A model generated the notes under the pieces. It worked only from the letters and a program-made list of their open reading frames with translations. It was not told the origin of the DNA and searched no databases. Source: an uncultured Saprospiraceae bacterium (lineage in GTDB: Bacteria; Bacteroidota; Bacteroidia; Chitinophagales; Saprospiraceae). Taken from it: a DNA stretch of 28,074 nucleotides. A program made the position numbers and the translations under genes. The stretch covers positions 9,309-37,382 of the forward strand of contig CAZXIX010000035.1 of assembly GCA_964640855.1 (NCBI GenBank), read 5' to 3'. This document shows positions 757-26,835 of this stretch, in pieces. Every line of letters begins with the position of its first letter. Within the stretch, counting starts at the first letter, position 1.

Positions 757-791
757 CCCGATTGATCCATTCAGACGGCGGCCATTATCTA

Positions 792-1300
792 GGTACAGAC
801 CTGATATTCCTGTAGGCTCAGGCCAATAAAAAGGTGCACATGCTCTACGGGCAAAAGGGTAACCGGGACCGCTTGATCAGGTATCAGGTACCAATAGGAT
901 ATTCAGTTTGTTACCCGATACCGTATTACCCTCCCGCGCCCTTTTATTCCCTAAAGGGATTCTGGCCGCACGCATTACCGCATTAAACCATTACAGCATT
1001 TTCCCCCCGCTTGTCAGTATCTCCGCTGCGCTCCGACCCGATACCCACTCAACTACTTAACTACTCAACTATTCAACCGATCCCCGATCCCCGATACCCG
1101 ATACCTGATACCCTGACGAAGCGAATCGTCTTTTTCCAGGATTTGAATTTTCCCCCCCGATTGTCAGGATCTCCGCTGCGCTCCGACCTGATACCCGATA
1201 CCCAATACCCACTTTCCCACTCAACCGCTCAACGACTTAACCATTCAACTCCATCACCCTTCCCTGACCATCCCGGGAAGCCCTACATTCCAATAATCCT
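792..1300. repeat. Copy A of a modular interspersed intergenic repeat family; contains an internal ~150-bp tandem duplication and heptamer/octamer micro-repeat arrays
   Basis: Seen directly: 792-905 aligns closely with 4213-4325 (ggtacagacctgat...taggctcagg...ggtgcacat...cgggcaaaagggtaacc.ggaccg.ttgatcaggtatcaggtac...). The segment ttttccccccgcttgtcagtatctccgctgcgctccgacccgatacc at ~1000-1050 recurs at ~1149-1200. Arrays (CCGATMC)x5 and (YTCAAC at 8-bp period)x4 are present. Confidence 0.8.
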
Positions 1301-1499
1301 TCAAGAATGATGGGTTTGCACTTAGTTATTAAAAAAGGCCAATTCAAGGTATTAACTTTACTGAGCGTGGATTTCCCGGCGGCAGGGCATCCACGGCTGA
1401 TCGTTGGAGGAGAAGATGCGAAGAATGCCGTAAAGGTTGATTCTATTAAACCCAAAGCCTGCCGGTATCTTGAACCGGCGAGCGCATTCAGTGTGTGGA

Positions 1500-3524
1500 A
1501 TGGCAATCCGGATATTAGTGGTTGACGATGAGCCGCAAGTGGAACGCTTGCTGCGTCAACGGTTTCGCCAGCAGTTGAAAAGCGGAGAATACGATTTTCT
1601 TTTTGCCTCCAGCGGAAAGGAGGCTCTGGCTATCCTGGAAAAGGAGTCCGATATTCCTATCGTCCTGAGTGACATCAACATGCCCGAAATGGACGGGCTC
1701 ACTTTTGTGAGCAAACTGAGGCAAAACTGGCCTCAGATTAAGGTCGTTATGGTTTCCGCTTACGGAGATATGGGAAACATCCGGGCAGCCATGAACCTGG
1801 GGGCCTTCGATTTCGTCACCAAACCCATCAATTTCGACGACCTGAATGCCACTCTCCGAAAAACCCTCCGGGAAGTGGAGGTCTCCAAACAGGCCGAGCG
1901 AGCCCGCGAACTGGAGTTGAATAACGAAAAACTCCGCGAACTCGACCAGGTCAAATCCACCTTTTTCACCAACATCTCTCACGAATTTCGGACGCCCCTG
2001 ACCGTGATCAGTGGCATGGCCGACCAAATCCAGGAAAAACCGGACCGTTGGATGGCCGAGGGGCTGCACATGATCAAGCGCAACAGCGACCATCTGTTGC
2101 AATTGGTCAATCAGATCCTGGATCTGGCCAAATTGGATTCGGGCCGACTCAAGCTGCGACTGGAGCAGGCGGACATCATTGCCTATCTCCGCTATCTGAC
2201 CGAGTCCTTTCGCACCCCGGCCGAGCAATACGAACTGCAACTGGCCTTTGAGGCCAGCGAAGAAGAACTCCTCATGGACCACGACCCCGAACGCTTGCAG
2301 TGGGTGCTCTCCAACTTGCTTTCCAATGCCTTGAAATTCACTCCCAAAGGAGGCACCATTCAGGTATCGGTTTCTCAACGCCCCTCAGCGAAGCCTCCGG
2401 CCGAGACCCGTTCCGTACCGGGTAAAAATCATTTGTGGCTGGAGGTCAAAGATAACGGGATCGGCATACCAAAAGATCGGCTTCCCTTTTTATTTGAGCG
2501 CTATTTCCAGGTGGAGGGAACCCAAACGGGCCCCCAACAATCCGGATGGGCCGGATCCGGGATCGGGCTCGCCCTGACCCGGGAGCTGGTCTTGCTGATG
2601 GATGGGGCGATTTGGGTGGAAAGCGAAGAAGGAAAAGGCTCTACCTTCTACATTGTGCTCCCGGTTCGCCAGGAAGCAGAAAGGAAGGATCCGGGAATCC
2701 GGCAGACAGGCACCGGGGAAAAAGAAACCGAGAACAGCCCCTTGGAATCCCCGGCTAAGGAAGAGGAGCGCGTGAATATCCTGCTGGTGGAAGACAACCT
2801 GGATGTGCGGACCTACGTCCGCTCCTGTCTGGAGGATAAATACGGGCTGTGGGAAGCTCGCAACGGGCAGGAGGGGATTGAGATGGCCATCGAACAGGTG
2901 CCCGATCTTGTCGTGAGCGACGTTATGATGCCGGAAAAGGACGGCTTTGAATTGTGTGAAACCCTGAAAAGCGATATACGTACCAGCCACATTCCCATCG
3001 TGCTTCTGACGGCCAGGGCGGACCAGGAATCCCGGATCTCGGGACTCCGCTACGGGGCAGATGCCTACCTGGCGAAACCCTTCAATCGGGAGGAACTGGA
3101 AGTCCGTCTCGAACAGCTTCTGGAGAACAGGCGTAAACTGCAGGAGCGGTTTCGCCGCGCCGAATCCGGCGAAGGGACCGAAGACGAAGCCATTCGCCAG
3201 GAGGACGCCTTCCTCACCCGGGTTCGCGAGCAACTCGAAGAAAACCTCGACGACGAAAATCTGGGAATTTCCGGTCTGGCCCGGGCCATCGGGGTCAGCA
3301 GGGCCCAATTGCATAATAAGATCAAAGCGCTCACCGGACAGTCGCCCTCCGTTTTTGTGCGCACGATCCGGCTGCGCAAGGCACGACACTTGTTGCTGAC
3401 CACAGACCTCAATGTAACCCAGGTAGCCTACGAGGTAGGTTTTCGGGATCCCGCCTATTTTTCCCGGACCTTTTCGGAGGAATACGGGCACAGCCCCAAG
3501 GAAACCCGAAGCGTGGACTCCTGA
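1500..3524 (+). CDS. Hybrid two-component protein: receiver - HisKA - HATPase_c - receiver - AraC-type HTH; no TM or periplasmic sensor domain
   Basis: ATG at 1500 gives MAIRILVVDDE...SDINMPEMDG (REC1). Then FFTNISHEFRTPLTVI (H-box), LEVKDNGIGIP and GSGIGLAL (HATPase), ILLVEDNLDVR...DVMMPEKDG (REC2), and AYFSRTFSEEYGHSPKE (AraC HTH). The ORF-track start at 1437 is a TTG 21 codons upstream; the ATG at 1500 is preferred. Confidence 0.9.
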   Translation: MAIRILVVDDEPQVERLLRQRFRQQLKSGEYDFLFASSGKEALAILEKESDIPIVLSDINMPEMDGLTFVSKLRQNWPQIKVVMVSAYGDMGNIRAAMNLGAFDFVTKPINFDDLNATLRKTLREVEVSKQAERARELELNNEKLRELDQVKSTFFTNISHEFRTPLTVISGMADQIQEKPDRWMAEGLHMIKRNSDHLLQLVNQILDLAKLDSGRLKLRLEQADIIAYLRYLTESFRTPAEQYELQLAFEASEEELLMDHDPERLQWVLSNLLSNALKFTPKGGTIQVSVSQRPSAKPPAETRSVPGKNHLWLEVKDNGIGIPKDRLPFLFERYFQVEGTQTGPQQSGWAGSGIGLALTRELVLLMDGAIWVESEEGKGSTFYIVLPVRQEAERKDPGIRQTGTGEKETENSPLESPAKEEERVNILLVEDNLDVRTYVRSCLEDKYGLWEARNGQEGIEMAIEQVPDLVVSDVMMPEKDGFELCETLKSDIRTSHIPIVLLTARADQESRISGLRYGADAYLAKPFNREELEVRLEQLLENRRKLQERFRRAESGEGTEDEAIRQEDAFLTRVREQLEENLDDENLGISGLARAIGVSRAQLHNKIKALTGQSPSVFVRTIRLRKARHLLLTTDLNVTQVAYEVGFRDPAYFSRTFSEEYGHSPKETRSVDS

Positions 3525-3590
3525 ATTTTTTCCGATCGGGGTTGACAATTTGCTCTAAAAAGGGGAAAATGGATCAAAAGTTCTCCCATC

Positions 3591-4214
3591 ATGAAACGAC
3601 TCTGGATTTCCTTCCTTCTTTTTGGGCTCCTTTCTAACTGCCAGTCACAGGAAAAAGCCGGCTAGAAAACCGTGGGCGGCCCTTGTGAGGGATGCGAAGC
3701 CGTTTACGAATTCGGGGATGCATCCCTTTCCAACACCGATACGCTTCCCGGCTTTGCGGTAAATGAGCCCCAACTGAAACTCACGGGTGTCGTTTTCCAG
3801 GCCGACGGCAAAACGCCGGCAGCCGACGTTATCGTTTACATTTACCACACCAGCCGACAGGGCATTTACGAAACGAAAGGGGACGAAACCGGATGGGGAG
3901 AAAGACATGGCCATTATCGGGGCTGGGTGAAAACCGGAAGCGACGGCAAGTATACTTTTTTCACCTTTCGCCCGGGACCCTACCCCAACGGAGCCGAACC
4001 GCAACACATCCATGTCATGGTAAAGGAACCGGATAAGAACGAATATTACCTGGACTCTTTTTTCTTTGCCGACGATCCTATGTTGACCCGGGAGGTCAGA
4101 TCCGGCATGCCCGGTCGGGGGGGATCCGGGATTGTGCAGCCCGAATCCAGGGGGGATTACTTCCTCGTCTCGCGGGATATCTACCTGGGAAAAAATATTC
4201 CGAATTACCCCTAA
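3591..4214 (+). pseudogene. Intradiol ring-cleavage dioxygenase-like small lipoprotein; signal peptide ORF (3591-3662) is separated from the mature domain (GTG 3672-4214) by an in-frame TAG at 3663-3665
   Basis: ATG 3591 encodes MKRLWISFLLFGLLSNC (lipobox LSNC) in the same frame as ORF 3672-4214. A TAG at 3663 lies between them. The mature part contains the EPQHIHVMV motif (the intradiol dioxygenase HIH iron-ligand motif) and a beta-sandwich-like sequence. Confidence 0.55.
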
Positions 4215-4440
4215 GTACAGACCTGATCTTCCGGTAGGCTCAGGTCCATAAAAGGGTGCACATTCTCCGCGGGCAAAAGGGTAACCCGGACCGGTTGATC
4301 AGGTATCAGGTACAAAACAGGGTATTCAATTAGTCGCCAGATACCCGGATACCCTACGAAACGAATCTTAGTCTTTCGGGGATTGAAAATCCGCTTCACT
4401 TCCATTGCGGGAAAGCGGATCTTTGGTCCGCCTCGCTTTT
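4213..4440. repeat. Copy B of the interspersed intergenic repeat family; starts immediately after the dioxygenase-like stop codon and ends in a hairpin (atccgctt...aagcggat)
   Basis: Direct alignment with 792-905 (copy A) over ~110 bp at high identity. The GATACCC repeats and the ctacgaaacgaatc module are shared with copies A and C. Confidence 0.8.
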
Positions 4441-4512
4441 TCAGATTACCTTGTATGGGAGAAGGATTTTTTCTGAGAGGCCGACAGGTTAGTCCGCAGC
4501 CAATATCCCCGT

Positions 4513-4938
4513 ATGGACACCTCAACTCTTGAAATCACCGTCCCAAACCAATATCCGGAGATCGACCGGGTGAAAGGAGCCTTCCTCCGGTTTTCCGGGG
4601 AGAACGGCATCCCGGATAAAGTAAAACGGGCTTTTATTCTGGCTTTTGACGAATTATTGAACAATATCATCTCCTACGGTTTTTCGCAACCCGGAGATTA
4701 TCCCATTGCTATAACCGTCCGATTGACAAAATCGATCGTCCGGGCAGATATTGTAGATAGCGGGGTGCCGTTCAATATTTTGGAAGCTCCCCTTCCGAAT
4801 GTAAAGACTGAATTGCCGGATCGTCCTACGGGCGGTTTGGGTATCTTTCTGGTCAGGCAAATGATGGACGAGATTCAATACCAGCGGGAAGGCGATTGCA
4901 ATCGCACTACGCTGATAAAATTTTTGGGAAATAGCTAA
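4513..4938 (+). CDS. Anti-sigma regulatory factor / serine protein kinase of partner-switching systems (RsbW/SpoIIAB-like, HATPase_c_2)
   Basis: 141 aa. Contains the GGLGIFLVRQMMDE G-box typical of RsbW-type GHKL kinases. A STAS-domain gene follows immediately. Confidence 0.75.
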   Translation: MDTSTLEITVPNQYPEIDRVKGAFLRFSGENGIPDKVKRAFILAFDELLNNIISYGFSQPGDYPIAITVRLTKSIVRADIVDSGVPFNILEAPLPNVKTELPDRPTGGLGIFLVRQMMDEIQYQREGDCNRTTLIKFLGNS

Positions 4939-4951
4939 GCCGTAAAAATCT

Positions 4952-5284
4952 ATGCAGATAAGCATTGTTGAGAAGGAAGGCGTACAGATCGTTCACCTCC
5001 GCGGGAGCCTGGATACCCAGACTTCCCCCGTGGCAGATGGCCGGTTTCGGGAAGTGCTTGAGGGAGGCGCCACGCGGGTACTGGCCGATTTCCGCGAACT
5101 GGACTACATTACGAGTGCCGGTATACGCGTCCTTCTCGGGGCTGCCAAACATTTGCAGGGGAGGGGCCGGTTCGGGATTTGCAACCTGAATGAAAATGTG
5201 CGCGAAATATTGGAGATGACCGGTCTGGCCGGATTGGTTTTCCAGGTGTACGGATCCGAAGACGAGGCATTACATGAATTGTGA
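4952..5284 (+). CDS. STAS-domain anti-sigma factor antagonist (RsbV/SpoIIAA-like)
   Basis: 110 aa. Has the conserved phosphorylatable-Ser context DFRELDYITSAGIRVL. Lies 13 bp downstream of the RsbW-like gene. Confidence 0.8.
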   Translation: MQISIVEKEGVQIVHLRGSLDTQTSPVADGRFREVLEGGATRVLADFRELDYITSAGIRVLLGAAKHLQGRGRFGICNLNENVREILEMTGLAGLVFQVYGSEDEALHEL

Positions 5285-5293
5285 AACCTTCAG

Positions 5294-7888
5294 ATGATCA
5301 AGACAGTCATCATTGCGGACAATCTGGTGAACGATTATTGCGGGCTGCGGGATCGCTACCTGGAAAACAACGTCCACATCGGCACGATCGCTGCGGAGCG
5401 ACTTTTCGGTCGGGCGGACCTGGATGAAGAAGGGCCCATTCCCATTTTTTTGCACCGGATGCAGCAGCAGCCGGCTACCCATTTGCTTTTCCTGCGGGAT
5501 TATTACGACCCGGAGGAAAGGACCAATACGGAGCAATTACAACGTCTGGGCAATCACTGTTTGAAGGGTTCCACAGGGGAAGATTTCGTAGCGGTCATTC
5601 GCGATTTGGTAAGCCCCGGGAATACCATCAATGACAAAGGTCTTTCGTTTCCCCTCGAAGGTCTCAAGGATGCCTTATGCGCTTTTGCCGACCTCGATCT
5701 GACGGATTTCGATCCGGAAAAGAACCGGGCTTCGGAGATCCGATTTCTGCTCATCGGGTTTCACACCGAAAGAAGGCTCTTTACCATCGCCAATGTGCTG
5801 CGCAATCTGTTCGGTTTCCAGCATGTGGCTGTTTTCTCCCATTTTACGGCCAGCGCCAATAAAGACGCCCATTTCGCTGCACTGCAATACCAGTTCCCCG
5901 ACAACCTGATCAAAGTACTCAACTGTTCCAACGACCTGGCCGAATATATGGGCCTCGATCTGAGCTTTCTGGACCCCTTCCAGCTTCGGGCCGTGCGCAT
6001 AGAACCGGAATCGGTACGGGCCCGGCTCAATGACGCACAAATCGACATCATCGAAGCGCTCTGCATGCATTGGACCGAAGCCCGCCTCCACAGCCTGAGC
6101 AGCGGCTACAGCAACAGCGCCCTTTACCTGGCCTACGGAAGGCAAGGCATTTCCAAAACGGAACCGATGGTGATCAAGATCGACGATCATTATCCCATAC
6201 GGTTGGAGATCAAAGGTTACCACCTGGTAAAAGATTTTCTGGGCAAACATGTGCCCACGCTCACCTTTCCGGTCAACTCCGGCTCTTACTCGGGGATCGG
6301 CATGGAGATGGCCTCCATGGAAGGTACGCCCCTGACCCTGCAGGATCACCTGGAGCGCGCCCGCACCGATTTTGAACTTCGCGAATTTCTCATTATGCTC
6401 GACCGGGTGCTGACCTTGCTGAATGACCGGGTCTACTCCAATACGAAGATCGAACGCCTGATCGCACCCTATCGGCATTTCAAATTGCATCTCGAACAAC
6501 ATTCCAAATGGCTGAAAGCCAACATGGAAAATATTCAGTCCCACCTCATCGGGCAGATATCCGTTTCCCAGGAGTCCATTCTAAAGATCTTCGATGCCGT
6601 TCGCAAGAATAACGACGTGCTTCTGGGAGAACTCTGCATAGCCCATGGGGATCTCAACCTGGCCAATATATTGGCCGACGAGAACGGTAATCTCTGGACC
6701 ATTGACTGGACGCACACCGGCCTGCATCCCATTTCCATCGATTTTGCCAAATTGGAAAACGACGTCAAATTTGTGCTCACCAAGGATCTGGAAGACGAGG
6801 ACCTTCCGAGGTTGCAGATGCTGGAGGAATACCTGCTATTCAACCGGATCCCCGCCCCCATTGATCAGCTTCCCGATTCGTTGCGGTTTGTGGGCTGGGA
6901 TATCCGTTTTAAGAAAATCTATCTTCCCGTCCGGGAGTTCCGCCTGGCCTACAGTCGTTTGCAGAGTGATCAGGAGTGGCTGGTTTACAAGATCGCCCTG
7001 CTGCGCTACGCTCTGCACACCCTCAGTTTTGATCAATCCCGGGACAAGGGGGAGTGCAAGCCCGTACAACTTTGGTATGCTCTGCTTTCGGTTGAGATCC
7101 TGGTTTTCCTGCTGGTAGGGGACGACTTCCATCTCAAGACCCGGAGCGAGAAACCGGCCGAGTACCCGGAGCGCCTCCGGATCCCGATCGATCTGGCGAA
7201 TTGGAAAACCGAGTGCCCGGATTACGAACCTCCGTACTACGTATCTCCCGAGGTGGTCGAGCAGGATCGCCGCCGCAATCCGCAGGGAGAAGCAGATCCG
7301 GAAACGGAATGGATCTATCCCGATCTGGTCGAATGGGGGCGGGACTATCTTCGGGCTGCCGATGGGAAGCCCCTCAACCCAAATGGTCGGACCGGGATCG
7401 AGGGACGCGGTAGCCTTTGGCTTTGGGGAAGTAATCCCATGCTGTTTTTCTGCCCCATCTTTTTCAATGCAAAGACCGGACAGTTGGAGTGTCTGATCAA
7501 TACCGATGAAAAGGAATCCGACATCATCAGTATACACTTTCGCCGAGGGGAGTCCTTCCGGGAAGCTTTGGTGCGGGCTCAGGAAAAAGTGAAGATCCAA
7601 ATGGATGATCACTATTTCAAGATGTTGCATGAAGGCTATTTCTACGATCTGCGCCAGACGGATCACGCCTGGATCGATGCCCGGGCTTTCCTGGTTTTTC
7701 TGGACGGCGCCCACGAGGTACGGGAAGGAAAGAAGGGGGGCTTGCAATGGAAACCCGTCAATCATCATTTGATCAACAGCCTGCATCCCAGCTACGCCAA
7801 CCTGCTGCGGTCGGCCCTGCTGCATTTGTTTGACGAAAATATCCATCGGGACGAAAATATCATCGACATCCTGGAAAAATCGGGCTAA
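5294..7888 (+). CDS. Large three-part protein: N-terminal ~250-aa domain of unknown function; central aminoglycoside-phosphotransferase/ePK-like kinase fold; C-terminal NUDT9-homology (ADP-ribose pyrophosphatase-like) domain with a degenerate Nudix box
   Basis: Kinase fold: LCIAHGDLNLANIL (Brenner HGDxxxxN) and TIDWTHTG (IDW Mg-binding Asp). NUDT9 cap: WKTECPDYEPPYYVSPEVV (cf. the W..DYPGYKPVEYTAPSV region I recall from human NUDT9, from memory not alignment) and LNPNGRTGIEGRGSLWLWGSNP (cf. NP.GRTGL.GRG.L.RWGPNH). NUDT9 core: HEGYFYDLRQTDHAWIDARAF (cf. [21 protein letters not shown]). No GX5EX7REUXEEXGU box is recognisable between these motifs. Confidence 0.6.
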   Translation: MIKTVIIADNLVNDYCGLRDRYLENNVHIGTIAAERLFGRADLDEEGPIPIFLHRMQQQPATHLLFLRDYYDPEERTNTEQLQRLGNHCLKGSTGEDFVAVIRDLVSPGNTINDKGLSFPLEGLKDALCAFADLDLTDFDPEKNRASEIRFLLIGFHTERRLFTIANVLRNLFGFQHVAVFSHFTASANKDAHFAALQYQFPDNLIKVLNCSNDLAEYMGLDLSFLDPFQLRAVRIEPESVRARLNDAQIDIIEALCMHWTEARLHSLSSGYSNSALYLAYGRQGISKTEPMVIKIDDHYPIRLEIKGYHLVKDFLGKHVPTLTFPVNSGSYSGIGMEMASMEGTPLTLQDHLERARTDFELREFLIMLDRVLTLLNDRVYSNTKIERLIAPYRHFKLHLEQHSKWLKANMENIQSHLIGQISVSQESILKIFDAVRKNNDVLLGELCIAHGDLNLANILADENGNLWTIDWTHTGLHPISIDFAKLENDVKFVLTKDLEDEDLPRLQMLEEYLLFNRIPAPIDQLPDSLRFVGWDIRFKKIYLPVREFRLAYSRLQSDQEWLVYKIALLRYALHTLSFDQSRDKGECKPVQLWYALLSVEILVFLLVGDDFHLKTRSEKPAEYPERLRIPIDLANWKTECPDYEPPYYVSPEVVEQDRRRNPQGEADPETEWIYPDLVEWGRDYLRAADGKPLNPNGRTGIEGRGSLWLWGSNPMLFFCPIFFNAKTGQLECLINTDEKESDIISIHFRRGESFREALVRAQEKVKIQMDDHYFKMLHEGYFYDLRQTDHAWIDARAFLVFLDGAHEVREGKKGGLQWKPVNHHLINSLHPSYANLLRSALLHLFDENIHRDENIIDILEKSG

Positions 7889-8793
7889 TGAAGGAATATC
7901 AGTCAATCATCGAAAAAGCCTTTCAAAAGGATATCGAGGCTTGCATCGACCCTTCGGATGCCAGGGAGTGGGCCCGGCTGGGATTTCATATCGCCTACCA
8001 CCTGTATCCCCGGGTTCGAAGCTGGCATTACAGGATGGAGCAGATAGAGCAGGTAAGAAAGGAAGACGGTTCTCCCTCTACGGCGGTGGAAGTGGAGATG
8101 GAACAACTGGCCCGCAGGAAGCTAAGGGCGTTTTTTCCGGAAGCTGTTTTCTTTGGCGAGGAACTGGGCGACGAACCGAAGCAGAGCGAATACTTGCTGG
8201 TGATCGACCCCATCGACGGGACCCGTAACTTCCTGGCCGGCTTTGGCAACTATTCGATCACGCTGGGTATTCTGAGAGGAAAGATTCCTTTGTTCTCCCT
8301 GGTCTGCGCGCCCGTCTCCGGAGAAATGTATTTTCGAATAGGAAATGAGCAGAGCTTTCTTTTTCTGATTCCCGAAAGGGGGAAGAGCCCGGAACTGCAT
8401 CCCCTTCCCTTGTTTACCCCCTCGGATGACAAGCCCATCCTGGTCAATCTCCATCCGTCCAGAAAAGCACTGCCTTATTTGGAATGTCTTTTCGAATTGT
8501 GGAGACTGGGCGAGATCTCTTTGCTCAAATCGGTGAGCGGTTCGCCTTCCCTATTGATGGCCGAAGCGGCGAAAACCGGAACTTTTTACATCAATACCTG
8601 GGACGATGCGCCTGCCCGGCCCTATGATCTGATTCCCGCATTGCATATCATCCGGGCTTCCCGCTCGCAAGCGATTCGTAAAGATGGAAAAGAGGTGGAC
8701 GCCTGGAATCATCAGGGGTTATACGTGCTCGGCCCTGTGGGCCAAAAACTGAAATCCTTGACGGATCGCCTGGCGGCTCTGGACCCGGCATAA
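7888..8793 (+). CDS. Inositol monophosphatase / CysQ (3'(2'),5'-bisphosphate nucleotidase) family phosphatase
   Basis: LLVIDPIDGTRNFLAG (the DPIDGT metal-binding motif of the IMPase superfamily) and TWDDAPA (WDxAAG-like motif). Its ATG overlaps the TAA of the upstream gene by 1 nt (ctaATGa), suggesting translational coupling. Confidence 0.75.
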   Translation: MKEYQSIIEKAFQKDIEACIDPSDAREWARLGFHIAYHLYPRVRSWHYRMEQIEQVRKEDGSPSTAVEVEMEQLARRKLRAFFPEAVFFGEELGDEPKQSEYLLVIDPIDGTRNFLAGFGNYSITLGILRGKIPLFSLVCAPVSGEMYFRIGNEQSFLFLIPERGKSPELHPLPLFTPSDDKPILVNLHPSRKALPYLECLFELWRLGEISLLKSVSGSPSLLMAEAAKTGTFYINTWDDAPARPYDLIPALHIIRASRSQAIRKDGKEVDAWNHQGLYVLGPVGQKLKSLTDRLAALDPA

Positions 8794-8816
8794 GAAAACG
8801 GTAGAGCGGAAATGCC

Positions 8817-10016
8817 TCAGCCGATGTATTTCAGGGCAAGGATCGTGAGGTCGTCGTTCAGAGAGGCCCCGTCCAGAAACTGCATGACCTCACCTTCGAG
8901 GCCTTTGACCAGGTCTTCCATCCGGCTCGGCCGGGCGCGGTTGAGATAGTCGATCGCTCTTCTTTCTCCAAACATTTCCTTGTCTTCCCGGGTGGCTTCC
9001 GATAAACCGTCGGTATACAGCACGAGCGTATCGCCGGGTTGGAGTTGTGCTTTTCCCAATTGATAGTGCCCGTCCTCCAGAACGCCCAGAATGGTCCCGT
9101 GGGGCAGATCCATGGATTGAAATTCCGAAGAGCCCCCCAGGGCAGCAAGAGGAGGATTGTGCCCGGCATTGGTAAACTGCAGGATCCCGGTTCGCAGATT
9201 GAGGACGCCTCCGAAAGCGCTGACGAACATCAGATCCTTATTGTTGCGGCAGAGAAGTCGGTTGACCGTGGAAAAAACGGCGCCGAAATCCGGATTGTCG
9301 CTCACATGATGCCGCAGGGAGGTAAAGGTGCGCGCCATCAGCAGCGAGGCGGGCATCCCCTTACCGGATACATCGCCGATGGCGAAATAAATATGTTCGG
9401 GGTCGAGGGCTAATGCATCGAAGAAATCGCCTCCTACCACGCGGGCCTGCCGGATCATGCCGAAGGCTTCTACCTCCGGTTTGTTGGGAAAGAGTCCGGA
9501 GCCATCCGGCACCATATTGGCCTGGATTTTGCCGGCCGTGGCCAGTTCTTTTTCCAGATGTTGGTATTTCAGTTGTTTCTCTACTCCGCGGATCAATGCC
9601 AGGTTGGTTCGTTCAAGCCGGCGCGCCATCATGTCCATGAGGTTTCGGATCCCCTGCCGGTTGACCGTCATCTTTTGCCAAAAAACCTCTCCCGGGATGA
9701 GGAGCACACGGGAAGCTTCGCCTGCGCGGGCCATGGCCGAGGTAGGGCGACGCATGATCAGGGACATTTCCCCCAGGCATTCGCCCGGCGAGATGGGTAT
9801 GGGGATCTGCGTGTCGTCCTTTTCGAGAACAACCTCCAGATTTCCGTCCAGGAGCAGATACAGGTTTTCATTGGGAACGCCGGGCTGGATCAGAACATCC
9901 CCCGGCTCCAATTCAAGCAGGGTGCTGCTTTCGAAAATATATTGGACGACCTCGGGCTCCAGTCCCTTGAAGAGGTCATAGGATCCGAGGGTTTGAGTGT
10001 AGGGAGAAAGGTCCAT
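8817..10016 (-). CDS. PP2C-family (SpoIIE/RsbU-type) serine phosphatase with N-terminal cyclic-nucleotide-binding domain
   Basis: The N-terminus has a cNMP phosphate-binding-cassette-like segment, GECLGEMSLIMRRPTSAMARA. The C-terminal half has VVGGDFFD and AIGDVSGKGMPASLLMA (PP2C/SpoIIE metal-binding motifs) and TDGLSEA. Confidence 0.85.
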   Translation of the reverse strand: MDLSPYTQTLGSYDLFKGLEPEVVQYIFESSTLLELEPGDVLIQPGVPNENLYLLLDGNLEVVLEKDDTQIPIPISPGECLGEMSLIMRRPTSAMARAGEASRVLLIPGEVFWQKMTVNRQGIRNLMDMMARRLERTNLALIRGVEKQLKYQHLEKELATAGKIQANMVPDGSGLFPNKPEVEAFGMIRQARVVGGDFFDALALDPEHIYFAIGDVSGKGMPASLLMARTFTSLRHHVSDNPDFGAVFSTVNRLLCRNNKDLMFVSAFGGVLNLRTGILQFTNAGHNPPLAALGGSSEFQSMDLPHGTILGVLEDGHYQLGKAQLQPGDTLVLYTDGLSEATREDKEMFGERRAIDYLNRARPSRMEDLVKGLEGEVMQFLDGASLNDDLTILALKYIG

Positions 10017-10069
10017 GAGACAATACTGAAAGCCCCGCCTAATATACTAAGTATGGGCCTAATATTTCG

Positions 10070-10350
10070 GAAGGCTCAGGCTGATTGAAGGGGGCGCATA
10101 CTCCACGGGGTAAAGGTAAGCTGAAACGGTTAATCAGATATTCAATTTGTTACCTGATACCCAATCCCCAATACCCTGACGAAGCGAATCTTACTTTTTT
10201 CCAGAAATTGAATTATCCACCCGCGCCCTTGGATTCCCCAAAGGGAAGGCTAGCCCGCAGTTTCGAAAATCCATATCCCCGAAAACCAATACCTACTTAC
10301 CCACTCAACTACTCAACTACTCAACCGATACCCTGGTCCCCGATCCCTCT
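10070..10350. repeat. Copy C of the interspersed intergenic repeat family, between the flotillin stop and the PP2C start
   Basis: Shares modules with copy A in the same order: ggctcagg...ggggcgcatactc..gggtaa, then attcaatttgttacc.gataccc, then ataccctgacgaagcgaatc.t..ttttttccag.a.ttgaatt.tcc, then cccgcgccctt..attcccc.aaaggga, then acccactcaactact.aactactcaac. Confidence 0.75.
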
Positions 10351-10462
10351 TCCGGGATCATGAGGCATAGTCCTGCAGTGGAATCACTTTCAATGCTTAC
10401 GGGTGTGTAGTTAGACCTCCCGATCCGATTTGCTTCTTCTTACTCCCGCGGGGGAGTATCTT

Positions 10463-21613: not shown

Positions 21614-22419
21614 TCACCCTGGATCTGGATATCGGACAACCTTCGGAGCAAACCCAGGTGGTGAAGGCCTGCGACGAGTATACGCTTCCGGGCGGCAGGA
21701 TAGTCGATTCCAGTGGCACCTACCGGGATACGCTAACTACGCCCCAGGGTTGCGACAGCATTGTCATCACGGAGCTGGCCATTAGTTCCAGCAGTCCGGT
21801 AACCGATGAAAGGGTAACCGAATGCAACCGCTATACCTGGCCGGCAAACGGCGTTACATACGATCAGAGCGGCATCTACACCGCTACGCTGATCAATGCG
21901 ACGGGCTGTTATTCCGTCATCCGGTTGAATCTGACCCTGACGGAATTGCTATTTGAAGTCATACCGTCGGATGGTTTTTTTACGGCAGTGATTCCGGAAG
22001 GAGGCGAGCTCCAATGGCTCGATTGCGATAACGACTTCGCTCCGGTAGCGGGAGCCACTGGGTCCACCTTTGCGCCGCCCGATTCCAGGGCCTATGCTCT
22101 GGAGGTCACTGCCGATGGATGCGTGGACACCTCAGATTGCCAAAGCCTGGTTCCGGTAGGGGTCAACGAGACCGCTTTTGAAGGCAAGCTCAGCCTGTTC
22201 CCCAATCCGACCACGGGCCGGATCACCGTGGGGCTGGGGAAGACTTACGGGGAAGTCCGCACGATCCTCCGCAACAGTTCCGGACAAAGCCTGGCCGAAA
22301 CCCGTTTCGAACGAATCGAGCAGTTCGACCTGCAGGTAGAGGGCCCGGCCGGGGTCTACACCCTGGAGATCCGGACACAAAAGGGCGAACGGGCCGTGGT
22401 CCGCCTGCTGAAAGAGTAA
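21614..22419 (+). pseudogene. 5'-truncated fragment of a T9SS-secreted repeat protein retaining the type IX secretion C-terminal sorting domain
   Basis: The ORF has no ATG after the kinase stop. Its upstream extension (21277-21613) overlaps the kinase gene and is low-complexity R/G/P. It contains repeats CDSLITLDLDI / CDSIVITELAI / GCYSVIRLNLTL and a CTD-like tail LSLFPNPTTGRITVGL...YTLEIRTQKG...VVRLLKE. Confidence 0.5.
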
Positions 22420-22455
22420 AGGAGAAGGGTACTATCGGCTCGATATCCTGCTTTA

Positions 22456-22611
22456 AGGCTTATTCAATGGCGTTTAACACCTTCCGGGCCATTTCGGCCA
22501 TGTGCCGGGGTTCGAGCCACCGGGTAACCAAAACGAGATAGTGTCCGGGATCGATCAGGATGTAATTCCCACCGAATCCGGCTGCGTAGTAGACCGAAGC
22601 CGGTATCCCTT
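22456..22611 (-). CDS. Small ORF (51 aa; MEGIPASVYYAAGFGGNYILIDPGHYLVLVTRWLEPRHMAEMARKVLNAIE), absent from the ORF track; may be a gene fragment
   Basis: Hand translation of the minus strand; non-random composition. I do not recognise a family. Confidence 0.2.
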
Positions 22612-22647
22612 CCATGTATCGGCCCCACCTCCGGCATCACACCATCG

Positions 22648-22687
22648 TGACATCGCGACATCATAAAATCATGACATCGCGACATCA
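22648..22687. promoter_or_regulatory. Operator-like array: two copies of TGACATCGCGACATCA (four GACATC hexamers, 8-bp period within each pair) ~65 bp upstream of the DUF202 gene
   Basis: Seen directly at 22648-22663 and 22672-22687. Confidence 0.45.
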
Positions 22688-22753
22688 AATCGTGTCCTGG
22701 ATCACATTTTCCTCCAACGGCTCTTCGTACCTTTACATCATCAAATTTCAATC

Positions 22754-23023
22754 ATGTCTGAGAACCAACTGATCACCAGGGATTATCTCGCCATTGAGCG
22801 TACTCGTCTGGCCAATGAACGGACTTTCCTGGCCTATTTCCGGAGTACCGTCGTATTCCTGGCCAGCGGGTTATCCATTATTCAGCTGGAGTCCTTGCGT
22901 GAGATCTACGAAATAGGCTTGGTGCTGGCTGCCATCGCGCCGGTCCTGCTGGCGGTCGGACTGGGGCGTTTCATTTATGTGAAAAGAAGCATCCGCAAGT
23001 ATTACGTCGAGAGCCAGGCCTGA
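22754..23023 (+). CDS. DUF202 (YidH-like) small inner-membrane protein
   Basis: DYLAIERTRLANERTFLAYFRSTVVFLASG followed by a second TM helix. This is the YidH/DUF202 signature as I recall it. Confidence 0.7.
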   Translation: MSENQLITRDYLAIERTRLANERTFLAYFRSTVVFLASGLSIIQLESLREIYEIGLVLAAIAPVLLAVGLGRFIYVKRSIRKYYVESQA

Positions 23024-23266
23024 CCCTTTGGGAAACGGACACCGGATCGGGCTTTTCCCGCTTTTCCCCAAGCGGTTTGCGATGCCACATCCCCAAGCGC
23101 TTTCCGGAGCGAAGCCAAAAGCGTATACATGAGCCGGTAACCTTGCCGGGGCGGGGAAAGGAGGAATTTTTATCGGGAAAAGTAATACCGGAAACAGCTA
23201 GACTTTTCATAAAACCCTACATTGAGAGGGAGTGGTTGAACCCACCAGGAACTGAAAAAATTAGCT

Positions 23267-24085
23267 ATGCTCCATATTGAGATCAAGGGGGCACACATTC
23301 CGGTATTGGGTCTGGGCACCTGGCGATTGGAAGGTACAGATGCCAAGGATCTGGTGCAAGATGCGCTTGAAGCCGGGTATCGGCATGTGGATACCGCCCA
23401 GATGTATGCCAACGAAAATGAGGTTGGGCATGCCCTGCGCGGCTCCGGTATTCCGAGAAAGGAACTGTTTGTCACCACCAAGGTCAACCTCGAAAACCTG
23501 GAACGGACCAAATTTCATAAATCCGTAGAAGAAAGTCTCCGGAGCCTTCGTCTGGAATTCGTGGACCTGCTGCTCATCCACTGGCCCCACCCGCGCATGC
23601 GCATGGAAGACTATCTCGAAGACCTGGTCATGGTGAAAGAAGAGGGTCTGACCCGGCACATCGGGATCAGCAATTTTACGACCAGCCAGATCGCCCGGGC
23701 CGTGAACTTTGCTCCCGATCTGATCAACAACCAGATCGAATACCACCCCTTCATCGATCAGCGCAAGGTCTGGAAAGCCTGCCGCCAGCACGGGCTGTCG
23801 CTTACGGCTTACAGTCCGCTGGCCAAAGGGCTGGTTTCGAAGAATGAGACCTTGAGCGAAATAGGCCGCCGATACGACAAGACCGGCGCGCAGGTCGCCT
23901 TGCGATGGCTGATCCAGCAGGACGGCGTCATCGCAATCCCCAAGACCGCTTCCCGCCAGCGCCTGCAGGAAAATCTGGAAATTTTCGACTTCAGTCTTTC
24001 CGAAGAGGAAATGCAGCAGGTTTTTGCCCTGACGGCCGCCAACAATCGCCTGATCAACCCGGATCACGCTCCAGCCTGGAATTGA
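23267..24085 (+). CDS. Aldo/keto reductase (2,5-diketo-D-gluconate reductase-like)
   Basis: IPVLGLGTWRL, DTAQMYANE, LLIHWP and IGISNF motifs of the AKR superfamily. Confidence 0.85.
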   Translation: MLHIEIKGAHIPVLGLGTWRLEGTDAKDLVQDALEAGYRHVDTAQMYANENEVGHALRGSGIPRKELFVTTKVNLENLERTKFHKSVEESLRSLRLEFVDLLLIHWPHPRMRMEDYLEDLVMVKEEGLTRHIGISNFTTSQIARAVNFAPDLINNQIEYHPFIDQRKVWKACRQHGLSLTAYSPLAKGLVSKNETLSEIGRRYDKTGAQVALRWLIQQDGVIAIPKTASRQRLQENLEIFDFSLSEEEMQQVFALTAANNRLINPDHAPAWN

Positions 24086-24242
24086 TCGGTGTTGGGACGC
24101 CGCTATGATTCCTGTCTTCGAGCCGGCTTGCCCGCTCTGGCATTCCGGGACTATGCCGTTGTAAAGTCGGCCCGCCCCGGGGAGGAGGGGCAGATATTTT
24201 CCGAATTATTTAAACAAATTGTTTTAAATTTGATTGCAAATT

Positions 24243-24275
24243 AACCACTCAACCACTCAACCACTCAACCACCTC
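24243..24275. repeat. Tandem 8-bp repeat (CCACTCAA)x3.5, 30 bp upstream of dinB; related to the YTCAAC 8-bp arrays inside the interspersed repeats
   Basis: aaccactcaaccactcaaccactcaaccacc. Confidence 0.7.
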
Positions 24276-24302
24276 CCGTCATACCAGAGAAAACGATAAT
24301 CT

Positions 24303-25445: not shown

Positions 25446-25623
25446 ATTTTTTGATGCGGGGATTTTGTCGGGCGTCAGCCGTTTGCCGTAAACCACTTAC
25501 CGTTCATAGACAGGGATCGGGTCGACTGCCGGGCGGCGACTTCCTCTTGGCCCGTCTGAGAGCCGGAGCCGGGTTACTGTTTAAAATGAGTAGGTTGTAA
25601 CCCAAAAAAATGCTATTTTTGGG

Positions 25624-26835
25624 TTGTTAAACACCCATTTTTTGCAAGAACTCATTCAGAGATCTGACTTATTGGTAAGGAGAGCCCCTCTTGCGTTTCA
25701 ACGTCAGGTGCCGGGAAAACCGAACTGGGATTGGCGTATGAATGCCATTGTAGGGGCGCGGGGTGTCGGAAAAACGACCGTGCTGTTGCAGCGATTGAGG
25801 AAAGTTAGCGCGGAAGGGAAAGCGGGGCTTTATGTCACCCTCGACGATCCGTATTTCACCGAAGAAAAGCTGATTGGTGTAGCGGAGCAATTTGACCGGG
25901 AAGGTGGTGAGGTATTATTTATAGATGAAGTGCACAAATATCCAAATTGGGGTCGGGAACTCAAGAATATATACGATCTGCTACCCCAATTAAAAGTGGT
26001 TTTTTCGGGCTCGTCCGTATTGGATATTCATGCACAGGGAAAAGATTTGAGCCGCCGGGCTCTATATTATTCCTTGCCAGGACTTTCTTTTCGGGAGTAT
26101 CTGAAGCTGCAAAGGGTTTTGGACTACCCGGTTTTGGCCCTGGAATCATTGCTCCGGGAGCATCGGCAAATAGCTAATGATATCCTGTCTTCCATAAAAC
26201 CCATTCCTCATTTTAAGGACTATTTGAAAAAGGGTTATTACCCCTTTTTCGCAGAGCCGGAAAGGGATTATCAAATTACCTTAAGCCAACTTATTCAATT
26301 GGTTATAGAGGTGGATATGCAGTTTCTTGCCAATCTGGATCCTTACCAGGGGAGAAAGGTCGCTCAATTGCTGAGGATCATAGCACATTCACCTCCCTTC
26401 AAGCCCAACATAAGTAAGCTCAGCGAGCGTATTGGCGTAGAGCGAAAAACACTTCAGCGATATCTCCACTACCTGGACCGAGCCAGGCTTCTTCGATTGG
26501 CAACCCTTCCGGAGGGAAATACGAGTATTTTACAAAAGCCGGATAAGGTGTTTCTCGAGAACCCCAACCTCTACTATGCACTGGCGGGTGAAGAACCACA
26601 GAGGGGTAGCCTTCGGGAGACATTTTTTTTGAATCAAGTCAGTGCTTCACATCAAGTCAGCCTGCATCGGAAAACCGATTTCCTGGTGGATGAAAAATGG
26701 TCTTTCGAGATTGGGGGGCGAGCCAAGTCGAAGGCGCAGATCAAAGAATTGGAGAATGCCTATATCGCTGCTGATGATATTGAGATCGGATATGGAAAGA
26801 CCATACCGCTTTGGCTTTTTGGCTTTTTGTATTGA
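25624..26835 (+). CDS. Second AAA+ ATPase of the COG1373/DUF4143 family (paralog of 16665-17816); start codon uncertain (TTG at 25624)
   Basis: Walker A GARGVGKTT, Walker B LFIDEVHKY, and the same overall layout as the first paralog. A perfect hairpin cccaaaaa-aatgcta-tttttggg abuts the putative start. Confidence 0.75.
   Translation: MLNTHFLQELIQRSDLLVRRAPLAFQRQVPGKPNWDWRMNAIVGARGVGKTTVLLQRLRKVSAEGKAGLYVTLDDPYFTEEKLIGVAEQFDREGGEVLFIDEVHKYPNWGRELKNIYDLLPQLKVVFSGSSVLDIHAQGKDLSRRALYYSLPGLSFREYLKLQRVLDYPVLALESLLREHRQIANDILSSIKPIPHFKDYLKKGYYPFFAEPERDYQITLSQLIQLVIEVDMQFLANLDPYQGRKVAQLLRIIAHSPPFKPNISKLSERIGVERKTLQRYLHYLDRARLLRLATLPEGNTSILQKPDKVFLENPNLYYALAGEEPQRGSLRETFFLNQVSASHQVSLHRKTDFLVDEKWSFEIGGRAKSKAQIKELENAYIAADDIEIGYGKTIPLWLFGFLY

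Follow-up and report, generated by a model that had tools for sequence, protein, structure and literature searches.

Three copies of an intergenic repeat, here called A, B and C, lie within 10 kb in a 28,074-nt stretch of DNA from an uncultured Saprospiraceae bacterium (contig CAZXIX010000035.1, positions 9,309 to 37,382; this whole stretch is referred to as the window). We consider that these copies are probably a lineage-restricted MITE (miniature inverted-repeat transposable element) with a fast-evolving interior, which would be mobilised in trans, presumably by a transposase of the IS630 family. The copies share sharp boundaries on both the 5' and the 3' side, end in terminal inverted repeats (TIRs) of about 28 nt, are flanked by the dinucleotide TA and are non-coding, and the sites of A and B are empty in a syntenic relative. 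An earlier note on the window, made from its letters alone, had hesitated between a MITE-like or REP-like (repetitive extragenic palindromic) element and a regulatory cassette, and these observations favour the MITE-like option. The REP-like label did not hold: no REP palindrome recurs in the copies and no Y1 transposase gene of the REP-associated tyrosine transposase (RAYT) type is present in the window, and for these reasons the element is not regarded as REP-like.

The repeat family and its anatomy

That the three copies form a genuine family, as claimed before, was evident from a degenerate 28-nt signature of the first block, which has three matches in the window (at 814, 4236 and 10072, all on the + strand) against 0.01 expected, and from the alignments of the copies with each other. 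By repeat search and BLAST, A and B are 89% identical over 106 nt, in agreement with the high identity over about 110 bp that had been reported, and 83% identical over 145 nt, while the comparisons of C with A and of B with C give 61-66% over 180-330 nt. Every named block was recovered: ggctcagg...ttgatcaggtatcaggtac, attcaatttgttacc, the GATACCC heptamers, ctgacgaagcgaatc...ttgaatt, cccgcgccctt...aaaggga and the YTCAAC octamers. The heptamer ACCYGAT occurs 23 times (7.7 expected), 14 of these inside A, B and C, and ACTCAAC 11 times (1.9 expected); the array-rich parts show a strong negative GC skew, from -0.27 to -0.49. The limits of the copies had to be revised from 792-1300, 4213-4440 and 10070-10350 to 792-1322 for A, 4214 to about 4436 for B and 10050-10411 for C, and a tail of about 75 nt common to A and C was found beyond the limits of the earlier note.

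A full element consists, in this order, of a leader (M1, about 100 nt), block M2, ACCYGAT heptamers, block M3, the hairpin block M4, a spacer, ACTCAAC octamers, further heptamers and the tail (about 75 nt). What is enclosed by leader and tail varies, and is composed of short tandem arrays and of units of about 150 nt. The body measures 531 nt in A, about 223 nt in B, which is truncated, 362 nt in C and 204 nt in L009-B, the copy found at the B site of a sister strain. Positions 1086-1328 of A are collinear with 10149-10416 of C, tail included, and the tail is recognisable in the relative L002 too. The ACCYGAT of the internal arrays is also the inner core motif of the terminal inverted repeat. 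The features are the following.

790-791 (+): left flanking TA of A, putative target-site duplication (junction table)
792-1322 (+): copy A, complete, 531 nt, interior partly duplicated (alignment with B and C; absent from the orthologous site of L002)
792-819 (+): 5' terminal inverted repeat of A (GGTACAGACCTGATATTCCTGTAGG...; local alignment against the reverse complement of the 3' end)
792-894 (+): leader M1 of A, with ACCTGAT once direct and twice inverted (ATCAGGT ATCAGGT; repeat and motif search)
898-925 (+): block M2 of A (ATATTCAGTTTGTTACC + GATACC; copy alignment)
930-959 (+): block M4 of A (CCCGCGCCCTTTTATTCCCTAAAGGGA, which forms a small hairpin; member of repeat family D7, with 77% identity to 10195-10246)
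999-1046 (+): first copy of unit U, about 48 nt (TTTTCCCCCCGCTTGTCAGTATCTCCGCTGCGCTCCGACC...; 92% identical to 1149-1196; duplicated in the sister strain's C too)
1047-1113 (+): octamer array ACTCAACT x3.9 (1047-1077), then heptamers CCGATAC x5.3 (1077-1113; Tandem Repeats Finder)
1113-1148 (+): block M3 of A (CTGACGAAGCGAATCGTCTTTTTCCAGGATTTGAATT), weak hairpin and T-run (repeat families D8 and D9)
1149-1250 (+): second copy of unit U (1149-1196), heptamers (1186-1210) and octamers (about 1215-1250; repeat search, Tandem Repeats Finder)
1251-1322 (+): tail of A, in which lies the 3' terminal inverted repeat (...GAATGATGGGTTTGCACT; tail homology with C, L009-B and L002)
1323-1324 (+): right flanking TA of A (junction table)
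4212-4213 (+): left flanking TA of B, which is the TA of the TAA stop of the dioxygenase-like gene (junction table, homologues)
4214-4436, end approximate (+): copy B, 3'-truncated, without octamers and without tail (alignments)
4214-4423 (+): modules of B, namely M1 4214-4316, M2 and heptamers 4321-4353, M3 4354-4390 and, in the place of M4, a hairpin 4386-4423
10048-10049 (+): left flanking TA of C (junction table)
10050-10411 (+): copy C, complete, 362 nt, the oldest copy (alignments; orthologues in L009/L010, decayed in L002)
10050-10213 (+): 5' modules of C, namely M1 10050-10140 (without the ATCAGGT pair), M2 10138-10155, heptamers 10152-10176 and M3 10176-10213
10217-10411 (+): 3' modules of C, namely M4 10217-10246, octamers 10297-10326 and tail 10346-10411
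10412-10413 (+): right flanking TA of C (reconstructed empty site cctaatatac-TA-gacctcccg, i.e. CTAG)
24243-24272 (+): solo array of octamers, AACCACTC x3.8, which share their motif with those of the element (Tandem Repeats Finder, repeat search)

C had been described as collinear with the other copies. Its modules are indeed shared, but their order is not strictly kept, as M4 precedes M3 in A and follows it in C, and A corresponds to about 1.5 C-like units. In the same way the tandem duplication of about 150 bp ascribed to A is real but partial: the first 48 nt of the two halves (999-1046 versus 1149-1196) share 92% identity, the value for 85 nt being 79%, and beyond this duplicated stretch the heptamer and octamer arrays differ in order between the two halves. 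This different order of the arrays after unit U makes the duplication a partial one and means that A and C lack strict collinearity. The fourth array, at 24243-24272, consists of octamers only and lies outside every copy; having neither leader nor tail, it is not considered a copy of the element.

The strictly intergenic placement stated previously applies to all the copies. Coding constraint was seen in none of the frames. Each of them has stops or non-synonymous changes between A and B, and in the single frame that is open across M1, nine of the 11 nucleotide differences between A and B change the amino acid. The copies have no Pfam match. The open reading frame (ORF) at 1011-1310, already suspected to be an artefact, is best read as one, since it has no Pfam match and repeat periods of 7 and 8 exclude a stable frame; the element explains this and two more spurious ORFs, at 10085-10363 and, on the minus strand, at 4214-4525.

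Ends, putative target sites and relatives

Leader and tail end in imperfect terminal inverted repeats of about 28 nt (5'-AGTRCARACCYGAT...; consensus 5'-AGTRCARACC...), so that the ends of the element read AGTRCARACC...GGTTTGCACT. In A, the first 28 nt or so align with the reverse complement of the last 28 or so with a score of 11 (shuffle p=0.002), and in the compact L009-B the two ends, AGTGCAGACCTCATATTC and AGTGCAAACTCATAATTC, are significant as well (shuffle p=0.0015). Directly outside both ends of every complete copy, that is A, C, the C of L009/L010 and L009-B, there is a TA. Joining the flanks of A gives ggccattatc-TA-gttattaaaaaagg, a CTAG target, and the targets reconstructed at the only three sites available are CTAG for A, CTAA for B (from L009) and CTAG for C. 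Elements of the IS630/Tc1-mariner group insert into TA, which is duplicated, and prefer CTAG (PMC2170065 and the Tenzen references cited there); the TA flanks and the CTAR targets of the three sites agree with this behaviour.

The junction of B deserves a separate description. The earlier note placed B immediately after a stop codon; the adjacency is correct, but B rather lies within the TA belonging to a native TAA stop, that of a dioxygenase-like gene, where the left TA is native and the first base of B, an A, restores TAA. Homologues of 205-220 aa align to the last residues of the dioxygenase-like protein and, since they reach its very end, the stop is at its native position. The restored stop argues for TA as the target, because an insertion directed to TA would leave exactly such an arrangement. 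A different reading of the junctions of A, with a 4-bp TTAT duplication and an element ending in CTTAG, was dropped, because the TA model fits all the copies and explains the stop at B.

Relatives (L002, L009/L010 and L011) were reached via the proteins of the window. Identical proteins were retrieved for P-II (in L010) and DUF202 (in L011), and L009 by way of a member of a protein cluster, whereas PP2C, STAS, GlnA, HSP20 and P0001 had no exact counterpart. In L002 (JGI 3300022723) the gene order is the same and the PP2C phosphatase is 87% identical at the amino acid level. At its site A the sequences on either side of the element adjoin each other, i.e. the site is empty; the spacer between the hybrid kinase and rsbW contains neither the dioxygenase-like gene nor B, and at site C a decayed leader and tail surround a different interior. 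The contigs L009 and L010 (JGI 3300035633) belong to a sister strain with about 93% DNA identity to window positions 2645-10258 and beyond, and there both B and C are present. L009-B is made of leader, M2 and tail only and has the same operon downstream. Between it and the rsbW-proximal region lie about 680 nt, apparently non-coding (L009, reverse complement, 1775-2451), which the window does not have. As the window keeps the interior of B and the sister strain keeps these 680 nt, deletions with different end points would have occurred in the two strains. The possibility that B replaced the whole upstream region of rsbW was ruled out by the orthology of window positions 4437-4512 to the rsbW-proximal region of the sister strain.

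The interiors differ greatly between these near-identical strains, and copy C is a good example. The sister strain's C (L009/L010) keeps the ATCAGGT pair lost from the C of the window, and on the L010 side it has two tandem units of U, heptamers and M3, like those of A. It also carries an extra insert of about 200 nt with GCCAAG-rich short repeats (L009, reverse complement, 8190-8390), absent from the window, perhaps a different small element nested in C. Both contigs stop inside C, from opposite sides. The repeat breaks short-read assemblies, a hint that the sister genome holds additional copies, or tandem units left unresolved. When the N-terminal half of the hybrid kinase was used to look for site A of the sister strain, no protein with more than 90% identity was returned. 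Reads of the very strain under study exist, as L011 (Logan SRR7048222) is 100% identical to window positions 22069-23681.

Identities between leaders order the copies in time. A and B are 88% identical, B is 82% identical to its L009 orthologue and A 83% to L009-B; C is 78.5% identical to its own orthologue and 67-73% to A or B, and the copy of L002 shows about 50% identity to every other copy. From these values C is older than the split from L002, B is older than the split of the two near-identical strains, and A arose after the strains had separated, either as a copy taken from the B lineage or through conversion by it. The pattern fits successive insertions in the order C, B, A.

Proposed transposition and its alternatives

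Small size without coding capacity, terminal inverted repeats, TA flanks and insertion polymorphism, four of the characters by which MITEs are recognised, were found in this element. In the mechanism that we propose, a transposase encoded elsewhere, most likely of the IS630/Tc1-mariner type, would bind the inverted repeats, and the element would be inserted into the TA of a CTAR sequence with duplication of this TA. After insertion, replication slippage, unequal recombination between copies and deletion would quickly alter the interior.

Several observations weigh against such an origin. Just three copies are known, all of them in the same orientation within 10 kb, which also fits a local duplication. 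The 28-kb window contains no transposase gene, and a parent insertion sequence (IS) having the same ends did not come to light. The inverted repeats match each other incompletely, at about 22 of 29 positions and with two gaps, and in the old C copies they are degenerate (p=0.82 and p=0.12 in the shuffle test). In L009-B a single additional G precedes the 3' TA, and site A of L002 is too diverged for an exact CTAG to be visible. The flanking TA, moreover, belongs to a near-palindrome, CTAA...TTAG, and so could be a part of the inverted repeat instead of a duplication. Finally, exact leader patterns searched in 185,579 species genomes and in JGI metagenome contigs detected no further copies. The genome contigs gave one chance match in Firmicutes, the metagenome contigs gave none and then three chance matches without similarity beyond the pattern, and in viral contigs the exact leader pattern had no match. 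These negative results carry little weight, since both exact patterns also miss the copies of the sister strain. For the same reason the claim that the family is undescribed, which is plausible, has been tested weakly. When the open minus-strand frame of B was searched, as a way to detect spurious ORFs elsewhere, in a set of 5.8 billion proteins, no homologue was found. A known IS end or attC site was looked for in the plasmid and phage collections only, and none was seen there beyond chance matches to simple heptamer runs in four plasmids, with no match in phages.

The main rival is a non-mobile mosaic, in which local segmental duplication, ectopic recombination or gene conversion, together with slippage, would have generated the copies without any transposase and the inverted ends would be incidental. 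The three copies on one strand within 10 kb and a window without a transposase speak for this explanation. Modules have been shuffled from one copy to another, and C of the sister strain has the duplication of unit U that in the window is found only in A, which suggests exchange; that A resembles B more closely than B resembles its orthologue also fits gene conversion. However, identical sharp boundaries at three loci are not expected of arbitrary duplication, the inverted-repeat ends are significant in two independent copies (A and L009-B), TA is found on both flanks with CTAR at the reconstructed sites, and the compact L009-B, 204 nt long, retains exactly the two ends. Sharp shared ends, inverted repeats and TA flanks thus weigh against the mosaic, and we regard it as unlikely.

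A regulatory role was the other possibility raised by the earlier note. Such a cassette would be either a shared promoter/operator or an array of sites bound by a regulator, and would have been recruited upstream of three units, namely the hybrid kinase, the PP2C gene and the rsbW-rsbV operon, to co-regulate the partner-switching cluster. The note described the gene context correctly, with signalling genes beside all three copies; A and B are upstream of the downstream genes and co-oriented with them, the ACCYGAT heptamers form direct and inverted arrays as binding sites do, M2 resembles a Bacteroidetes -7 box at five of the six specified positions, and segments of the BrickBuilt element of Porphyromonas gingivalis show promoter activity (PMC4596501). 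Against this, neither A nor B is present in L002, whose genes and gene order are the same, and the B of the sister strain precedes the same operon without the heptamer, M3 and M4 interior, so that the implied functional tie to the signalling genes is not supported. In addition, the hybrid kinase has a conserved promoter-like region that is situated downstream of A and is not part of the element; relative to the PP2C gene, C has the inverted orientation that the note had observed, and the conserved -7-like box of that gene is outside the element too. No copy contains an exact TAnnTTTG box, and a sigma-70 scan of the copies remained at background level. The cassette appears very unlikely to us; the association with signalling genes is probably incidental, any effect of the element on these neighbours would be incidental as well, and no new regulatory mechanism is revealed on the present evidence.

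The arrays themselves suggest a bolder idea. As the ACCYGAT arrays repeat the inner core of the terminal inverted repeat, and as the motif is also present once in direct and twice in inverted orientation in the leader, the heptamers might be transposase-binding sites that the element has multiplied within itself (an exaggerated inverted-repeat/direct-repeat arrangement, acting as a sink or a self-regulating module), or else co-opted binding sites or a mobile promoter that rewires the partner-switching cluster. We give little credence to this idea.

A structured small RNA or a cis-acting RNA element encoded by the leader M1 (about 100 nt) was also evaluated. In A and B a long hairpin can be drawn, closed by GGTAC/GTACC and ACCTGAT/ATCAGGT, and its inner helix shows two apparently compensatory changes (TCCTG/CGGGA, TCCGG/CCGGA, TTCGG/CTGAA). 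However, fold z-scores of M1 on the + strand go no further than -1.1 to -1.9, without any significant value on the - strand, RNAalifold on six leaders gives a consensus fold of -4.2 kcal/mol, the hand-drawn helices are no better than shuffles (59/500 and 37/500) and covariation is not above controls. The outer stems are lost in the older copies, and Rfam 15 gives no match either at the gathering score or at E<=5. An RNA function of the leader is therefore hardly credible. G-quadruplex or i-motif potential of the C3N4 arrays was judged by eye and set aside as inconsistent between copies.

Comparison with described elements and gene neighbourhood

Elements of the BIME (bacterial interspersed mosaic element) type in E. 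coli are built of REP palindromes and depend on a RAYT (Y1) transposase, and the NIMEs (Neisseria intergenic mosaic elements) are built with dRS3 repeats. Like these, the present element is an intergenic mosaic of a few ordered modules, variable between strains and often located just past stop codons; unlike them, it has defined inverted-repeat ends and TA flanks and no REP-type palindromes. The short tandemly repeated repetitive (STRR) sequences of cyanobacteria are tandem heptanucleotide arrays found only between genes and strongly asymmetric between strands. The likeness of the present arrays to STRR concerns their intergenic location, the tandem heptamers and the strand asymmetry, whereas sequences and phylum are different and our arrays are contained in a bounded element, of which the heptamer repeats the core of the inverted repeat.

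The closest described analogue would be BrickBuilt, together with MITEPgRS/MITE464, of P. gingivalis, by architecture only. BrickBuilt is a MITE with a leader and a tail carrying small TIRs around internal tandem repeats, strictly intergenic and restricted to its species; 19 copies are known, many of them truncated, and promoter activity has been measured (PMC4596501). Both elements belong to the phylum Bacteroidota and have a non-repetitive leader and tail with small TIRs, imperfect tandem repeats inside and no internal transposase. They are also alike in being strictly intergenic, in having copies often shortened to just the leader or just the tail, lengths that vary between copies and strains, spurious ORF calls and a narrow host range. 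The TIR of BrickBuilt is however GAGACCTTTGCA (IS5-like), and that of the present element AGTRCARACC with TA flanks (IS630-like); the interior of the former is a single 23-nt minisatellite, while the latter contains 7-nt and 8-nt arrays, a unit of about 48 nt and unique blocks. Since ends and repeats differ in sequence, the likeness is architectural only, and a comparison with Table 2 of PMC4596501 found no homology to the 23-nt or 41-nt brick or to the TIR GAGACCTTTGCA. With MITEs of the IS630/Tc1-mariner group and with ISY100 (PMC2170065) the element has in common terminal inverted repeats, TA insertion and duplication and a CTAG-type target; IS630-derived MITEs typically have simple interiors without tandem arrays, in contrast with the array-rich interior observed here.

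If confirmed, the element would add a MITE family to an uncultured Saprospirales/Lewinellaceae-like lineage of the Bacteroidota, and it would be the second example in this phylum, after BrickBuilt, of MITEs with internal micro- or minisatellites. To our knowledge, few or no MITEs have been described in the Saprospirales/Lewinellaceae-like lineage, to which the window was assigned by the named homologues of its PP2C and hybrid-kinase proteins. The element would also account for metagenome contig breaks, such as those of the two sister-strain contigs that end inside C, its fast-changing interior could serve as a marker for strain typing, and the spacers around the partner-switching cluster would be hot spots of structural change between near-identical strains. 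The feature that most merits the attention of specialists is the internal heptamer arrays that repeat the core motif of the terminal inverted repeat.

The genes around the copies are the following.

64-756: 3' end of a histidine kinase
about 1500-3524: hybrid protein with response regulator (RR) and histidine kinase (HK) domains, RR-HK-RR-AraC
3591-4214: dioxygenase-like lipoprotein gene
4513-5284: RsbW-like and STAS genes
within 5294-8793: TCAD9/APH protein, then IMPase-like gene
8817-10016 (minus): PP2C, binding cyclic nucleotides (cNMP)

In the region 5294-8793 the rsbW/STAS pair is followed by a protein of 864 aa (TCAD9, APH-like kinase; NUDT9_N in relatives) and then by the IMPase-like gene, and the PP2C gene is convergent with this set; such an unusual partner-switching neighbourhood is kept in L002 and L009. 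The dioxygenase-like gene has an in-frame TAG at 3663-3665, just past the signal peptide, where the strain with about 93% identity has CAT; the gene may be a recent pseudogene, it may restart at GTG 3672, or the TAG may be a sequencing error.

Other repeats of the window and of its relatives were also recorded. The solo array AACCACTC x3.8 is perfect. It is preceded by a canonical Bacteroidetes -7 box (TAAATTTG, 24225-24232) and followed by the start of a dinB-like gene (window 24225-24302) and, given this location, it probably makes up most of the 5' leader of that gene. The orthologous dinB-like leader of L004, a relative with 66% identity, keeps the promoter and has no octamer array. Upstream of a DUF202 gene, at 22635-22687, there is a tandem array of period 8/16/24 with half-palindromes of the TCACGA/TCGTGA type (CATCACGACATCGTGA...), identical in L011, which may be a set of operator sites. 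Immediately ahead of the AAA_14/DUF4143 gene at 25624 there is a TAnnTTTG box, enclosed by an inverted repeat of 26 nt (AAAATGAGTAGGTTGTAACCCAAAAA / TTTTTGGGTTGTTAAACACCCATTTT, 25583-25641). In L004 (236-1050), heptamers CTACCGC x3.9 (236-263) lie just upstream of a gene of 220 aa with a faint Y1_Tnp (IS200/RAYT-like) match, and the two may be an unrelated pair of repeat and transposase.

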